This document shows, piece by piece, positions 3,214-23,572 of a DNA stretch of 64,000 bases (positions are counted from its first letter, which is position 1; each line of letters opens with the position of its first letter). The DNA is from a virus (lineage: Duplodnaviria; Caudoviricetes), in the IMG/VR virus record IMGVR_UViG_3300025638_000003, positions 1 to 64,000 of that record. One strand, given 5' to 3'. Both the position numbers and the translations under genes were made by a program. The notes beneath the pieces were generated by a model. It was given only the letters and a program-made list of their open reading frames with translations, was not told where the DNA came from and did not search any database.

Positions 3214-3298
3214 GCCACTGTGGATAAGGGAAATTGGAACAACCGACTGACTCAAGATCAGTTATCCTTTGCACGTTCGAATCGGGTCAGTGGCACCA
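3214..3298 (+). tRNA. tRNA-Leu (CAA), aberrant enlarged D region
   Basis: GCCACTG/CAGTGGC acceptor, ACTGA-CTCAAGA-TCAGT, TTCGAAT, ACCA. Confidence 0.75.
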
Positions 3299-3304
3299 AT
3301 TTAT

Positions 3305-3759: not shown

Positions 3760-5040
3760 ATGAATAATGACATAGCAGTTATATCGACATTTTTCAATCC
3801 TCTAAAATATAAAAATCGTTATGAAAATTACTTAAAATTTCAGGATTTTATATATGAATGTGGATTAAAAGATCATTTTTATGTATCGGAAGTATTATAT
3901 AAAAATGATGAACCATTTATCAATCATAAAAATATATTAAGATTTAAAACTGAAGATATTTTATGGCATAAAGAACGAGCGTTAAATTTAACTGTAAAAA
4001 CTCTTCCAAAACAATATACTAAAGTTGTCTGGGTTGACACTGATATAATTTGGTCCAATATAAATTGGTGGAAAGAAGTTAGTAAATTATTAGAAGAATA
4101 TAATATAATTCAACCATTTGCTTATTGTAAATTTTTAAATTCCCATTTTAATTTGGATCACACTCAAATGTCCATATTTCATAGATTATTCCGAATAAAT
4201 AATGGATTGCCAACGTTTCATGCTATTCATTATGGTGGAACAATGGCTTATAATAGAAAATATTTTGAATGCGTTGAACTTTATGATAAAGATATAATTG
4301 GAGGAGGGGATTTTATATCAAATATATCGATATTAAAAATGCCTATAGATGAAAATGTTCAAGCGTTTGATCCTGAATTAGATTCATATATTGAAAAATC
4401 GGGTAAATATTTAGAAAACAAATATCATTATTTAGATGATTCAGTTTATCATCTTTATCATGGTCAGCTTCATGATCGTCAATATATAAAGAGATATTCT
4501 ATTCTTAAAAATTATATTTTTAATGATATGTGTGAAAAGGATGATAATGGGTTATATAAGTTTAAGTCAACTGTTTCACAAAAAATAAAATCACAATTTT
4601 TAGATTATTTTAAAACTAAAAATGAGGATTTAATACAATTTATTGTTTCTTTAAGTAAGTCATATAATATTGAAAGAAGTTCAAATGGAAATTTCAAATG
4701 GATTTCGGCTGAAAATATATATGAATTATATAATTTAAAAAGTATTAAATTAAAAGTTAGTCGAATGGGGAATTCTAATACCTCTCCATATTTAAATGTT
4801 ATATGTAATGGAAACTTTAAACATTATTCGCTAGATTTAAATAAAGATACTGAAATCATTATTCCTGTTTCTGATAAAAAAGAAGTATCTAAACTTATTC
4901 TTTTAGGAAAAGGATTTGTACCTGCCGAAATAGATTTAAACAGTCGGGATTTTCGCCAATTATCTTATGCAATTAAAAAAGTAGAAATTTTACAACAAAA
5001 TAAAACAGAATATGAAAATTATTTATTAGAAAATTTTTAA
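3760..5040 (+). CDS. GT-A fold glycosyltransferase, paralog 1
   Basis: WHKERALN, WVDTD (DxD), GGGD, HLYHG motifs; C-terminal beta-rich domain. Confidence 0.7.
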   Translation: MNNDIAVISTFFNPLKYKNRYENYLKFQDFIYECGLKDHFYVSEVLYKNDEPFINHKNILRFKTEDILWHKERALNLTVKTLPKQYTKVVWVDTDIIWSNINWWKEVSKLLEEYNIIQPFAYCKFLNSHFNLDHTQMSIFHRLFRINNGLPTFHAIHYGGTMAYNRKYFECVELYDKDIIGGGDFISNISILKMPIDENVQAFDPELDSYIEKSGKYLENKYHYLDDSVYHLYHGQLHDRQYIKRYSILKNYIFNDMCEKDDNGLYKFKSTVSQKIKSQFLDYFKTKNEDLIQFIVSLSKSYNIERSSNGNFKWISAENIYELYNLKSIKLKVSRMGNSNTSPYLNVICNGNFKHYSLDLNKDTEIIIPVSDKKEVSKLILLGKGFVPAEIDLNSRDFRQLSYAIKKVEILQQNKTEYENYLLENF

Positions 5041-5044
5041 TATT

Positions 5045-6316
5045 ATGAATAATGACATAGCAGTTATATCGACATTTTTCAATCCTTTAAAATATAAAAA
5101 TCGTTATGAAAATTACTTAAAATTTCAGAATTTTATATATGACTGCGGATTAAAAGATCATTTTTATGTATCGGAATTATTGTATAATAATGAAGAACCG
5201 TTTATTAATCATGAAAATGTAATCAGATTTAAAATGGAAGATATATTTTGGCATAAAGAACGAGCTTTAAATTTAACTGCAAAAATACTTCCAAAACAAT
5301 ATTCCAAAGTTATCTGGGTTGATGCCGATATGATTTGGTTCAATAAGAATTGGTGGAAAGAAGTAAGTAAATTATTGGATGAATATAATGTAGTTCAACC
5401 ATATTCAAGCTGTCAATATTTACGATCTAATTTTAGTACTGAAAGAAAAACTAATTCGGTATTATTTTATATATGTCAAAATAATTTTAATGAAAAGGGA
5501 TTGGTAGGTGGAGCGATGGCCTATAAACGGGAATTTTTTGACACGATTGGATTATATGATCGGGCAATAATGGGTGGCGGAGATATAGTATCTATTATGC
5601 CCATATTAAAAACTACTATTCCAACAAAATATGCATATTTTGATTTAAAATTGAATGAATATTTAGAAAAAGCAACTCAGTATATAAATAACCGATATTA
5701 TTACTTAGATGAATTAATTTGTCATTTATATCATGGACGAATATTTGATCGGGGGTATAAAGATCGATATAAAATGAATGAAAATTTAACATTTGATGAT
5801 TTATGTGAAGTTGGAGAAAGCGGATTGTATAAATTTAAATCAAATGTTACAAAGATTGTAAAATTTAATTATATTAAATATTTTGAAGATAGGAATGAAG
5901 ATTGGGAGCAACTAATTTATCCATTAAATAAAAGATATATGATTGAAAAAAATATAGATGGATCATTATATAAATGGTATGCCCCAACAAGTGTATTTGA
6001 ATTGAAGAATATAAAAAGTATTAAACTACAAATTGATAGACGAGGAAATCCATATACTTCTCCATATTTAAATGTCATAGTTAATGAAAAATTTAAGCAA
6101 TTTGCATTAAATTTAGAAAATATTACCGAAATCATTATTCCTATATCTGAAGTGGAGCAAACATCTAAACTTGTTTTATTAGGAAGAGAATTTATACCTT
6201 CACGTACCTCTTTAAATAGTAATGATAATCGTTATTTATCTTATATAATTAATAAATGTTGGATATTGCCAAATGGAAAAATAAATTATGAAGAATACCC
6301 AATAGAAAATTTTTAA
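5045..6316 (+). CDS. GT-A fold glycosyltransferase, paralog 2
   Basis: Tandem paralog; WVDAD, GGGD, HLYHG. Confidence 0.7.
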   Translation: MNNDIAVISTFFNPLKYKNRYENYLKFQNFIYDCGLKDHFYVSELLYNNEEPFINHENVIRFKMEDIFWHKERALNLTAKILPKQYSKVIWVDADMIWFNKNWWKEVSKLLDEYNVVQPYSSCQYLRSNFSTERKTNSVLFYICQNNFNEKGLVGGAMAYKREFFDTIGLYDRAIMGGGDIVSIMPILKTTIPTKYAYFDLKLNEYLEKATQYINNRYYYLDELICHLYHGRIFDRGYKDRYKMNENLTFDDLCEVGESGLYKFKSNVTKIVKFNYIKYFEDRNEDWEQLIYPLNKRYMIEKNIDGSLYKWYAPTSVFELKNIKSIKLQIDRRGNPYTSPYLNVIVNEKFKQFALNLENITEIIIPISEVEQTSKLVLLGREFIPSRTSLNSNDNRYLSYIINKCWILPNGKINYEEYPIENF

Positions 6317-6318
6317 AT

Positions 6319-7602
6319 ATGAATAATGACATAGCAGTTATATCAACATTTTTTAATCCTCTAAAATATAAAAATCGATATGAAACTTATTTAAGATTTC
6401 AAGACTTTATATATGACTGCGGATTAAAAGATCATTTCTATATTTCTGAATTGTTATATGATGAAGAAGAGCCATTTATTAAACATGAAAATGTAATTAG
6501 ATTTAAAGTTAAAGATATATTTTGGCATAAAGAACGGGCTTTAAATTTAACTGCAAAAATACTTCCAAAACAATATTCTAAAATTATCTGGGTTGATGCA
6601 GACGTAATTTGGTTCAGTAAGAATTGGTGGAAAAAAGTAAGTAAATTGTTGGATGAATATAATATAATTCAACCATATTCTCATTGTCAAAATTTAAATA
6701 AAAATTTTAGTTTAGATAGAAAATATAAATCACAAATTTATAGTGTAATATTTTATAATAAAAATACATCAAAACAAATGGAATATGGTGCCCCGGGTGG
6801 TTCTATGGCTTATAAGCGGGAGTTTTTTGAAAATATAGGTCTTTATGATAGATGTATAGTTGGCGGGGGAGATTATAAATCAATTTATTCTATATTTGGT
6901 TTGGAATTACCAATGCGAGATAAATCATTTGATTTTAAAATAAATGAATATGCGAATATTATCAAAAAATATATTGGAAATAAATATTATTATTTAGATG
7001 AAATAATGTATCATTTATATCATGGAAGAAAATTTGAACGACAATATTCAAAAAGGTATCAATTAATTAAAAATTTTAATTTTTATGATTTATGTGAAGA
7101 AGATGAAAATGGGTTATATAAATTTAAATCTACAGTTACAAATGAATTGAAATTGAAATTTATTAATTATTTTAAAAATCGCAACGAAGACTGGGAACCA
7201 TTAATAATTCCATTGTATAAACCGTACTTGGTAGAGCACAGTAAAAATAATATATTTAAATGGATGCCTCCCGAATGTGAATATGAATTACATAATATAA
7301 AAAGTATTAAATTACAAATTTGTCGAATGGGAAATGCTCTCACTACTCCATATTTGAATGTTATATCTAATGGAAAGTTTAAACAATATTTATTGAATTT
7401 AGATAAAGATACAGAAATTGTTATTCCTATTTCTGAAAAAAAAGGAATATTCAAACTTATTCTTATAGGAAAGGGATTTATACCAGAAAAAGTTTTTATT
7501 AATAATTCGGATGTAAGAAAATTATCTTATGTAATTAACAATGTTAAAATTTTACAACATGATAAAGAAGAATTTGAAGATTATCCGGTAGATGCAATGT
7601 AA
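6319..7602 (+). CDS. GT-A fold glycosyltransferase, paralog 3
   Basis: Tandem paralog; WVDAD, GGGD, HLYHG. Confidence 0.7.
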   Translation: MNNDIAVISTFFNPLKYKNRYETYLRFQDFIYDCGLKDHFYISELLYDEEEPFIKHENVIRFKVKDIFWHKERALNLTAKILPKQYSKIIWVDADVIWFSKNWWKKVSKLLDEYNIIQPYSHCQNLNKNFSLDRKYKSQIYSVIFYNKNTSKQMEYGAPGGSMAYKREFFENIGLYDRCIVGGGDYKSIYSIFGLELPMRDKSFDFKINEYANIIKKYIGNKYYYLDEIMYHLYHGRKFERQYSKRYQLIKNFNFYDLCEEDENGLYKFKSTVTNELKLKFINYFKNRNEDWEPLIIPLYKPYLVEHSKNNIFKWMPPECEYELHNIKSIKLQICRMGNALTTPYLNVISNGKFKQYLLNLDKDTEIVIPISEKKGIFKLILIGKGFIPEKVFINNSDVRKLSYVINNVKILQHDKEEFEDYPVDAM

Positions 7603-7621: not shown

Positions 7622-7790
7622 GGAGTTGACATTTGTGAAAAGTCTGATATAATGAGAGGCGAAAATTGAAATGCCAAAGAAAAATTGAAAAAAAAAAATC
7701 GAAAAAGAGTTGACATTGATTAAAAGTCTGGTATAATGGTTGGCGAAAATTGAAATACCAAAGAAAATTGGTAAAAAACAAAAATTGAAC
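7622..7790 (+). promoter_or_regulatory. Tandemly duplicated sigma70 promoters (~84-bp unit)
   Basis: GAGTTGACATT...AAAGTCTG(A/G)TATAATG...GGCGAAAATTGAAAT(G/A)CCAAAGAAAA repeated; -35 at 7626 and 7710. Confidence 0.8.
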
Positions 7791-7807
7791 ACTATTTATC
7801 TGGTAGT

Positions 7808-7912
7808 ATGAGAAATCGATTACAAAAACGGAATAGAGCCGAGGGCGATTGGACGCTCAATAGTAAGAGTGTCTCCATTTATAATCGTCCAGAAGGGAGG
7901 CTCTCGACGTGA
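7808..7912 (+). CDS. Putative 34-aa leader peptide MRNRLQKRNRAEGDWTLNSKSVSIYNRPEGRLST
   Basis: ATG..TGA after promoters, overlaps mutually exclusive hairpins preceding a terminator. Confidence 0.6.
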   Translation: MRNRLQKRNRAEGDWTLNSKSVSIYNRPEGRLST

Positions 7913-7968
7913 TGTAATACGATACATGCCGTCAATGAGAGCCGAACCAAAAAAGGTTCGGTTTTTTT
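7835..7968 (+). promoter_or_regulatory. Transcription attenuator (1:2, 2:3 antiterminator, 3:4 terminator)
   Basis: AGAGCC(7835)/GGCTCT(7899); GGCTCTCGACG/CGTC-AAT-GAGAGCC; AGCCGAACC/GGTTCGGTT + U-tract. Confidence 0.65.
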
Positions 7969-8174
7969 GTTGACAAAAAACTGGATTTGTGGCAAAATGG
8001 ATTTGTGGCAAAATTTGGATGGGTTTTAATGGTGCTGAGTTTTCCCGGAAAAAGCACCCGTAGAAGAGTTCCGTGAGATCGGATATAGCGGAGCGGCAAA
8101 TATAGCTCCAACTCTGGTCAGTGCAGGGATGTGCTGGCTACCAACGAAGGTGAAAAAACTCAATGGGATGTAAT

Positions 8175-8252
8175 GGAAGCGAAGCTCATAAGGATGAGCA
8201 CCCGGCTTTTAACCGGGTGGCAGGTTGGGTTCGAATCCCCCCGCTTCCACCA
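8175..8252 (+). tRNA. tRNA-Lys (TTT)
   Basis: GGAAGCG/CGCTTCC, CCCGG-CTTTTAA-CCGGG, ACCA. Confidence 0.9.
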
Positions 8253-8254
8253 AC

Positions 8255-8325
8255 AGGAGGTCCGCTGGGCGGTACGAGGTCTCCAAAACCTTGTTTGACA
8301 GGTTCGATTCCTGTACCTTCTGCCA
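8255..8325 (+). tRNA. tRNA-Trp (CCA), shortened D-arm
   Basis: AGGAGGT/ACCTTCT, CTCCAAA loop, GCCA; D-arm CCGC-TGG-GCGG. Confidence 0.85.
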
Positions 8326-8502
8326 ATTTAGATAGAAAAAATGAATTTATTTATACTATTTATTTATAAAGATTAGAATTTAAAGATTATAGTACTGCAT
8401 TAAGTTTCGCTAAAAAAACAGCAGAAGAAATGTTAAAGGATGCGGATCTTGATATGTAATAAATACAACAATTTCTATTAAATTTTAATATATTTATATG
8501 AC

Positions 8503-10289: not shown

Positions 10290-10370
10290 GGAGGCGAGGG
10301 CAAAGTAGTCGAGCCGCAACCCTGTCACGGTTGAGAATTTTAGCGGGTGCGAGTCCCGTCGTCTCCGCCA
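10290..10370 (+). tRNA. tRNA-Asp (GTC)
   Basis: GGAGGCG/CGTCTCC, CTGTCAC loop, GCCA. Confidence 0.9.
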
Positions 10371-10372
10371 AT

Positions 10373-10446
10373 GGCCCATTAAGTAAATGGCATACTATCC
10401 TCCTGATAAGGGGAAATCCCTGGTTCGATTCCAGGATGGGCTACCA
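10373..10446 (+). tRNA. tRNA-Ile (GAT)
   Basis: GGCCCAT/ATGGGCT, CTGATAA loop. Confidence 0.95.
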
Positions 10447-11186: not shown

Positions 11187-11333
11187 ATGAAAAGTAAACT
11201 TAAAATGTTGCGATGGGTAAATTTTGTCAGTAAAGTTCTATCATTATCTTTTAAAAATAAGGAAATAATGGATTTAGATTCAAGATTGGATTCAATTGAG
11301 AATCGAGGAAAAGTCCCTTATTATGATTATTAG
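11187..11333 (+). CDS. Small hypothetical protein (48 aa)
   Basis: ATG..TAG ORF followed by terminator. Confidence 0.4.
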   Translation: MKSKLKMLRWVNFVSKVLSLSFKNKEIMDLDSRLDSIENRGKVPYYDY

Positions 11334-11337
11334 CATC

Positions 11338-11368
11338 CGTGAGGGATTTAATTCCCTCACGAGTTTTT
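11338..11368 (+). terminator. Intrinsic terminator
   Basis: CGTGAGGGA-TTTAAT-TCCCTCACG + AGTTTTT. Confidence 0.75.
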
Positions 11369-16403: not shown

Positions 16404-16638
16404 CTTTGGTGCGGGAAGAAAACCCGCCTGCTTTAGCGGGTGGGATGAATGCCCGTTAATATAATAATGATTTTGGAATGATTCCAAAATATATATATTG
16501 ACTTTCCAGTTCAATAAGAACTGGGGAACGGCGGGAACCGCCGTCTAAGCCAACTGCCTTGACGTAAGACAAATTCCTAGCGGAATTTGCAGTTGATTGG
16601 GTTGGAAACCCATTCGCTTTAGCGGATGGGTAGTTCAT
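16404..16638 (+). mobile_element. Non-autonomous IS200/IS605-family element (235 bp), complete copy 2
   Basis: Follows TTTAT; left hairpin CCCGCCTGC-TTTA-GCGGGTGGG, right hairpin CCCATTCGC-TTTA-GCGGATGGG then TAGTTCAT; no TSD or transposase. Confidence 0.8.
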
Positions 16639-20678: not shown

Positions 20679-20750
20679 TGCGGGGGAGTGTGATGGTGCA
20701 CGACAGTTTCATAAGCTGTAGGACCAGTTCGATTCTGGCGACCGCAACCA
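20679..20750 (+). tRNA. tRNA-Met (CAT), irregular acceptor/T junction
   Basis: ACAGT-TTCATAA-GCTGT, TTCGATT, GCAACCA; mismatches in acceptor. Confidence 0.65.
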
Positions 20751-20814
20751 ATTTCATCTGGAAGTGATGGCAGAAAAATGTCTGACTCAATGTAGGCATC
20801 TCGTCATTTTTAAT

Positions 20815-23113: not shown

Positions 23114-23200
23114 GGATGGTTAACCGGGCGGGGACCCGGGGCCGACTCGAAATCGGCACGCACCTCAGAGTGTGGGGATCGAGACCTCAGCCATCCGCCA
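23114..23200 (+). tRNA. tRNA-Ser (CGA), likely 8/4 fold
   Basis: GGATGGTT/AGCCATCC, 5-bp D-stem, GCCGA-CTCGAAA-TCGGC, T-loop ATCGAGA, GCCA. Confidence 0.85.
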
Positions 23201-23206
23201 TTTTCA

Positions 23207-23572
23207 ATGAAAAAACAGTTAATATTTATATTTATATTTTTCTTTGTATTGATTGCAAAAACTGAAAATGTACGGTTTAATGTACAATATGAAGGAAATA
23301 CTAACGAAACTGCCGGATTTGCCATTTATTATGGCCCGGCATCTCGCCAATATACCAATCATCAAATAGTAAAAAATTCTACTAATATCACTATCACGAA
23401 TCTACCATCCAATTCTTCGTTTTATTTATCTGGACGATCTATCAGGTTTGACGGATTGGAGTCGGATTTAGGAAACGAATTATTTATAACAACCACACCT
23501 ATTATAACCAATCAATTACCAAGTGCAGTGAAAGATTTTCGGCTTTCTCACGTTTATATGAATATTTATTAA
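23207..23572 (+). CDS. Secreted FN3-domain protein
   Basis: Signal peptide; GFAIYYGPASRQYTN...GLESDLGNE. Confidence 0.7.
   Translation: MKKQLIFIFIFFFVLIAKTENVRFNVQYEGNTNETAGFAIYYGPASRQYTNHQIVKNSTNITITNLPSNSSFYLSGRSIRFDGLESDLGNELFITTTPIITNQLPSAVKDFRLSHVYMNIY

Follow-up and report, generated by a model that had tools for sequence, protein, structure and literature searches.

The trpL, hisL, pheL, thrL, leuL and ilv leaders of enterobacterial amino-acid operons each combine a short promoter-proximal open reading frame (ORF) with an intrinsic terminator and a mutually exclusive antiterminator; a ribosome terminating at the stop codon of the ORF covers the 5' strand of the antiterminator. The pheM leader of pheST brings attenuation to an aminoacyl-tRNA synthetase operon, and T-box riboswitches use terminator/antiterminator leaders to report the state of the tRNA pool. 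Here, we describe a leader in front of phage tRNA genes that shares features with each of these regulators. It lies in a window of 64,000 nucleotides (nt), the first 64 kb of the 101.8-kb IMG/VR virus record IMGVR_UViG_3300025638_000003, which is rated 29% complete, and comprises two tandem promoters, a 34-codon ORF (7808-7912) and three hairpins termed A, B (the antiterminator) and T (the terminator, 7940-7968), all on the plus strand. On balance, and with modest confidence, we read this leader as a translation-sensing transcription attenuator that works like trpL.

Comparison with the described systems brings out shared as well as distinct features. With the trpL-class leaders the element shares the short promoter-proximal ORF, the intrinsic terminator, the excluding antiterminator and a stop placement through which slow decoding would give read-through; this much of the trp/his geometry assigned to the locus in an earlier, sequence-only reading of the window has stood. 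However, trpL-class leaders carry a run of cognate regulatory codons, whereas the phage leader has none and is unusually diverse (17-20 amino acids); they possess a 1:2 anti-antiterminator helix that gives termination when the leader is untranslated, whereas here the 1:2 pairing is not conserved; and their cargo consists of biosynthetic enzymes rather than a non-coding RNA and phage tRNA genes. Two defining features of the trpL class, the run of regulatory codons and conservation of the 1:2 helix, are thus lacking, and we do not file the element as a member. Like pheM, it would employ leader-peptide attenuation of a component of the translation apparatus as feedback on decoding capacity, but whereas pheM responds to Phe codons alone and its operon encodes proteins, the phage leader singles out no amino acid and its downstream products are RNAs. 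T-boxes recognize uncharged tRNA directly, using a specifier loop and a T-box bulge, and work without an ORF, whereas the ORF is a conserved feature of the phage leader; Rfam yielded no T-box match at the window element. Full-text literature searches returned no published description of leader-peptide attenuation of tRNA genes.

Two mutually exclusive hairpins in twelve lineages

In the window, the predicted fold of 7793-7975 has a free energy of -66.7 kcal/mol (z = -6.5), a stability not reached by any of 200 shuffled sequences. The minimum-energy structure pairs segment 1 (AGAGCC, 7835-7840) with 7899-7904 (GGCUCU) around hairpin A, followed by the terminator hairpin at 7940-7963. Hairpin A (7843-7890, -19.5 kcal/mol) lies inside the ORF and has 8 + 8 base pairs (bp), an apical loop and a 3' bulge. 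Terminator T (7940-7968) consists of a stem formed by 7940-7948 and 7955-7963, a loop of six A residues and a run of seven U residues at 7962-7968, with a stability of -13.3 kcal/mol, or -16.5 if extended. Its competitor, hairpin B, is an 11-bp helix of -20.8 kcal/mol between segment 2 (7899-7909), which occupies the last codons of the ORF, and segment 3 (7930-7943). The last four nucleotides of segment 3 (7940-7943) are also the base of the T stem, so that B and T are mutually exclusive, and with B formed T is reduced to a 5-bp remnant of -4.9 kcal/mol. Forcing the 2:3 helix costs just 2.4 kcal/mol (-58.3 vs -60.7), and window transcripts that end before the 3' arm of T fold into 2:3 spontaneously.

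This competition is a property of the family. The comparisons presented here cover 12 lineages, of which clade I comprises the window, L040, L090, L050 (= G001), L045, L043, L061 and L106, and clade II comprises L055, L048, L057 and L059. All 12 possess a terminator with a U run. Truncating the transcript within the loop of T yields hairpin B in every one of them, and the two hairpins are comparable in stability, B ranging from -14 to -24 kcal/mol and T from -12.5 to -22. A simple terminator scan of the window does not call T at 7940-7968; the homologous hairpin is called by the scan in four relatives. Within clade I, three of the seven outer pairs of B are changed on both sides (C-G to U-A and U-A to C-G among them), only three non-pairs occur in 42 cells over six lineages, and L106 adds a further change of C-G to G-C. 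Clade II has a segment 2 that duplicates 7-10 nt of the terminator's 3' arm, and the difference in segment 2 between L055 and L059 matches the difference between their terminators exactly. The switch between a 2:3 antiterminator and a terminator that the sequence-only reading had proposed is thus borne out by covariation and by competition in every lineage.

The comparison of leaders in related phages, which that reading had named as a check, turned out differently for the other two helices. Hairpin A shows compensatory changes at two pairs (U-A/C-G/A-U and G.U/U-A/A-U), although it is remodeled in L106 and absent in clade II. The 1:2 helix does pair in the fold of the window, as had been claimed, but it is found only in the window, L040 and L045, eight of 36 cells are non-pairs, compensatory changes are absent, and the partner strand does not follow the altered segment 2 of L061. 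The Rfam collection gave no match with an E-value below 1 on 7744-7968, and the best match in a relative was to Thr_leader, which scored 17.9 bits (cutoff 55; E = 1.2).

The homologs were found by RNA model, DNA pattern or synteny and none through a search with the ORF. A protein search with the downstream ArdC-like gene, combined with contig look-ups, led to the relative L040/L041. The alignment of window positions 7807-8372 to L040 has 90% identity, whereas at the DNA level almost nothing of the flanking protein genes aligns; this argues that the element is under strong constraint. Stem changes between the two are wobble-compatible, most other changes fall in loops, and the L040 ORF is open, with five amino-acid replacements versus one silent change. 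A first covariance model, built from the window and L040, gave full-length matches in L050, L045 and L043; a second added L061, L090 and L106, together with weak but syntenic matches in L055, L048 and L057, and L059 was recognized by position and design. A terminator-based pattern run against IMG/VR found L090 and L106, most of its 47 matches being unrelated terminators. Among the matches to that pattern, L062 was rejected as a family member, being a gene end; the pattern also gave 120 matches in bacterial genomes. Other searches added nothing to this set: blastn of the window region against GenBank phages returned tRNA matches only; a 16-mer of hairpin A gave 21 chance matches in IMG/VR, and a hairpin-A pattern there gave G001 only; a locus search with two flanking proteins gave no relative; the closest IMG/VR relatives by primase yielded only chance blast matches, including one 19-nt match in a coding region; and a 20-mer scan of metagenome contigs recovered the same phage only.

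A conserved leader ORF that ends on the antiterminator strand

The leader ORF of the window runs for 34 codons plus TGA at 7808-7912, as first called, and its stop codon (7910-7912) directly follows segment 2. The sequence-only reading had made its case depend on the conservation of this ORF, and an ATG-initiated frame of 33-44 codons is kept in all 12 lineages, none of which was selected by its ORF. The placement of the stop, which that reading had seen just after segment 2, is also a family trait: in all 12 the stop falls within or just beyond this strand, 6-16 nt from its first base, with TGA, TAA and TAG all in use. Four of the five indels inside the frame are multiples of three (+3, +3, +12 and +6), and the sole exception, a deletion of two nucleotides at codon 30, moves the stop by 5 nt. 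When the variable columns are shuffled, the frame stays open in just 8-23% of trials per lineage.

The strongest argument for the ORF being read is a frame-specific diversity of amino acids. The ORF frame encodes 17-20 different amino acids per lineage, reaching all 20 in L106 (in 33 codons) and in L057. This diversity exceeds that of shuffled sequences in 12 of 12 lineages, with a mean z of +1.66, and is not raised in the two other frames (z of -0.55 and -0.51). The idea of a codon-sampling leader, put forward earlier from the window's 27 distinct codons, therefore survives in altered form: that count is ordinary (null mean 25.6, P = 0.32), but the family-wide diversity of the ORF frame fits a leader that samples.

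The importance once attached to four early Arg codons has to be given up, as two of the four are lost in the closest relative, L040, and Arg counts are at chance level or unconserved (six Arg codons in the window ORF, P = 0.14; five kinds, P = 0.04). Codons decoded by the downstream tRNAs are no more frequent in the leader than expected; adjacent Lys/Trp codons occur in seven of the 12 lineages, representing only two or three independent cases, which by our estimate is not significant; and when the leader is compared with the nine tRNAs encoded up to 11361, about one third of its codons are mirrored, a proportion not above rough expectation. The peptide itself has no Pfam match at E-values up to 10, and a protein search with a clade II peptide found only itself and one neighbor. 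A suspected likeness to ribosomal protein L34 found no support in the Pfam search. With respect to initiation, the starts of about 36 long ORFs in the window mostly lack a Shine-Dalgarno sequence and lie in A/T-rich regions, so the lack of one before 7808 is no objection to translation.

Promoters, downstream RNA and tRNA genes

The tandem promoters reported upstream of the ORF are both present. P1 (7626-7653) and P2 (7710-7737) each have the form TTGACA-16-TATAAT with an upstream TG and are 12/12 matches; they sit inside an 84-nt tandem duplication (7623-7698 and 7707-7782), P1 in its first copy. Transcription from P2 would begin near 7744, giving an A-rich 5' untranslated region of about 64 nt. 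By scans and by reading of the sequences, a sigma-70 promoter occupies the equivalent place in 12 of 12 lineages. Perfect sigma-70 promoters are abundant in the tRNA region of the window, with seven observed against 0.24 expected. The pairing of canonical TTGACA/TATAAT promoters with genes that mostly lack Shine-Dalgarno sequences is unusual and may help to place the host. In the closest relative, an insertion of about 430 nt (L040 1755-2190, equivalent to L041 5358-5793) separates the promoter from the leader ATG; it includes three hairpins whose loops read CUUUAG and has the appearance of a small mobile element, and the contig also encodes an IS200/IS605-type Y1 transposase and TnpB.

Behind the terminator, the first conserved feature is an RNA rather than a tRNA gene. 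In the window it spans 8015-8174, beginning about 47 nt after T, and is 95% identical to its counterpart in L040. A conserved non-coding RNA follows the terminator in most lineages checked (L040 2376-2541, L061 15030-15150, L055 12005-12235, L048 4466-4676 and L106 5545-5800), with shared blocks such as UUGGAUGGGU and CUACCAACGAA; some blocks are common to the window and L061, and short motifs are shared by the window and clade II. This RNA has no Rfam match, its structure score is modest (z = -2.1), and the three sequences compared show few compensatory pairs. It is followed in the window by called genes for tRNA-Lys (UUU, 8175-8252) and tRNA-Trp (CCA, 8255-8325). A tRNA-Lys belongs to the first tRNA group behind the element in all 12 lineages, with the anticodon UUU in ten and CUU in L045 and L061, and a called tRNA-Trp does so in eight of 12, L055 having an uncalled Trp-like sequence there.

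In clade II, the terminator tail continues directly into the downstream RNA, and no promoter-like site was seen between the two (L055 scanned, the other three members read by eye), so that in these phages the RNA should need read-through. In the window, a promoter-like site with the form TTGACA-17-CAAAAT and a TG lies at 7970-7998 (a 10/12 match). The sequence-only reading had warned that this site could bypass the switch; the site is real, and its -35 element is TTGACA only in the window and L040, the other lineages having GTTGTA or GTTGTT there. The putative -10 element of this site is doubled in the window by an exact 16-nt tandem repeat of GGATTTGTGGCAAAAT (7983-7998 and 7999-8014), of which L040 has a single copy. 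In three members of clade II (L055 12180-12265, L057 12110-12150 and L059 12370-12400), a promoter-like TTGAC box overlaps a short hairpin of the GUG-GAGAGA-CAC type just before the first tRNA, the hairpin occurring twice in L055.

The extent of any unit governed by T is bounded by the next terminator-like hairpin, at 11338-11361, which may be its end. On the plus strand between 7998 and 12248 there is no promoter site of at least 11/12 and one 10/12 site, at 11296. Read-through to about 11338 could therefore also include the ArdC-like gene and seven more tRNA genes. The regulated cargo had been described as 'the phage tRNA cluster'; tRNA-Lys and tRNA-Trp do lie downstream, but the conserved RNA comes first and the unit ends at 11338 at most, and with 33 tRNA genes and several other promoters in the window the phrase overstates the case.

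The 33 tRNA genes, as called by ARAGORN, all lie between 2.3 and 22.9 kb. At 3272-3303, 10345-10373, 20724-20755 and 23176-23217, the tRNA repeat families of the window also contain T-arm/acceptor-like ends that ARAGORN does not call and that may represent further unusual tRNAs or tRNA-like RNAs. At L055 13081-13157, L048 8810-8885 and L057 16888-16963, relatives encode a tRNA with the four-base anticodon uaca as well as tRNAs with UCA anticodons labeled SeC by ARAGORN, both of which are possible frameshift or opal suppressors. The window as a whole looks like part of a large myovirus, encoding a baseplate wedge protein, a Hoc-like protein, a primase and an SbcCD-like protein, and near-identical DNA is present in 14 sludge and digester metagenome runs. 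Upstream of the leader, positions 3760-7602 hold three tandem paralogous genes of about 425 codons each with near-identical 5' ends and no Pfam match, of which L040 has one copy only, before the element. A 189-nt direct repeat of 99% identity occurs at 1-189 and 16450-16638, 16.4 kb apart.

Ribosome position, rival explanations and tRNA supply

The layout kept in 12 related phages suggests that the switch probably lets transcription continue when ribosomes slow. Host RNA polymerase would start at P1 or P2 and transcribe the ORF, the final codons of which supply the 5' strand of B; B (7899-7943), once formed, would take the bottom four pairs of T (7940-7968). A ribosome reaching the stop codon at 7910-7912 in step with the polymerase would, given the footprint generally ascribed to a terminating ribosome, cover 7899-7909; B would then fail to form, T would form, and the transcript would end at about 7968. 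If the ribosome were late, stalled or absent, B would form first, T would be left as the 5-bp remnant, and the polymerase would continue into the RNA at 8015-8174, tRNA-Lys (UUU) and tRNA-Trp, possibly as far as about 11361, so that output would rise when decoding is slow. We infer both that ribosome position chooses between B and T and what the sensed signal would be.

Several observations weigh against this scheme. The ratio of nonsynonymous to synonymous substitution rates (dN/dS) of the ORF is about 1 (0.7-1.8 in clade I) and the best-conserved bases of the ORF region are stem bases, so a constraint on the RNA only would explain much of the conservation; an unconserved peptide fits a leader whose translation matters, but equally fits a non-coding RNA. 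Translation of the ORF is itself inferred. Relatedness among the 12 lineages means that the statistics on the ORF and on diversity treat them as more independent than they are, which makes the nominal P values (about 1e-4 to 1e-5) too low; in the window taken alone, codon and amino-acid diversity are ordinary (P = 0.32). The leader has no regulatory codon run, with Lys, Asn and Trp codons not enriched (P = 0.07-0.68). Because the 1:2 helix is not conserved, an untranslated leader would read through by default in most lineages. Finally, promoter-like sites lie 3' of T in the window (the 10/12 site at 7970) and just before the tRNAs in L043 and L055, and the tRNAs may therefore not depend on read-through.

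A first alternative is a leader in which B and T answer an effector (protein, small molecule or RNA, for instance a tRNA) bound to hairpin A or to the 5' region, with the ORF incidental. We consider this unlikely but well short of negligible: the B/T switch is well supported and in principle needs no ribosome, hairpin A is the best-conserved part of the leader in clade I and covaries, and a dN/dS of about 1 is what an incidental ORF would show. However, the hairpin that could receive the effector is remodeled in L106 and missing in clade II, and yet the ORF and the placement of its stop are kept in these same phages, indels preserve the frame, and the excess of amino-acid diversity is specific to that frame. 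No Rfam riboswitch or T-box model matches.

A second alternative, to which we give a low probability, treats promoters, ORF and terminator as a gene in its own right, whose product would be a small RNA or a protein of 34 residues; the 7970 promoter would then supply the downstream RNA and tRNAs, and the overlap of B with T would only shape or stabilize the 3' end. Two perfect promoters and a strong terminator would suit such a gene, as would the promoter-like site at 7970 and the short peptide motifs that recur in relatives. Moreover, four metatranscriptomes contain contigs that cover 7974-8311 but none over 7744-7968, although a contig reveals neither transcript ends nor strand nor whether one transcript is involved, and missing cover is not evidence. 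One of these contigs begins at 7974, however, upstream of the start expected from the 7970 site, the TTGACA of that site is confined to the window lineage, and no promoter was detected between T and the downstream RNA in clade II. A plain 3' end would not need segment 2 to track the terminator arm across clades, nor does a separate gene sit easily with the same downstream RNA (in most lineages checked) and tRNA-Lys (in all 12) behind the element, and the absence of a Pfam match together with a dN/dS of about 1 makes a folded functional protein unlikely.

An arrest leader, in which conserved residues of the nascent peptide would stall the ribosome on a metabolite and so set B against T, is very improbable, since of the two motifs that recur in most relatives (an N-terminal one with Trp and a C-terminal one with Arg-Pro, which may resemble the TnaC leader, a lead only) the first is lost in the window and L040 (UGG became CGG or CCG) and the second coincides with a conserved stem strand, their spacing varies between lineages, and dN/dS is about 1.

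A tentative and, as it stands, doubtful proposal is that the leader is a broad gauge of decoding speed: a frame of 33-44 codons kept with nearly every amino acid might be delayed by shortage of almost any charged tRNA, which would turn on tRNA-Lys (UUU), tRNA-Trp, the conserved RNA and perhaps the next seven tRNA genes as an inducible answer to tRNA depletion, e.g. by host anticodon nucleases. The link to tRNA-cleaving defenses is a conjecture drawn from what the cargo is; PARIS targets tRNA-Lys by cleavage, and a tRNA-Lys encoded by phage T5 allows that phage to escape this defense (PMC11464382).

The common view of phage tRNA genes is that they are constitutive codon-usage helpers or decoys against tRNA-cleaving defenses. 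The 12 natural variants with their compensatory changes make the idea of an attenuator in front of such genes directly testable with reporter constructs, and the conserved downstream RNA would be the first product released by the switch. If the idea is true, large phages would gauge decoding capacity and correct it on demand, with the transcription of tRNA genes coupled to ribosome speed, and leader-peptide attenuation would extend from the supply of amino acids to the supply of tRNA.
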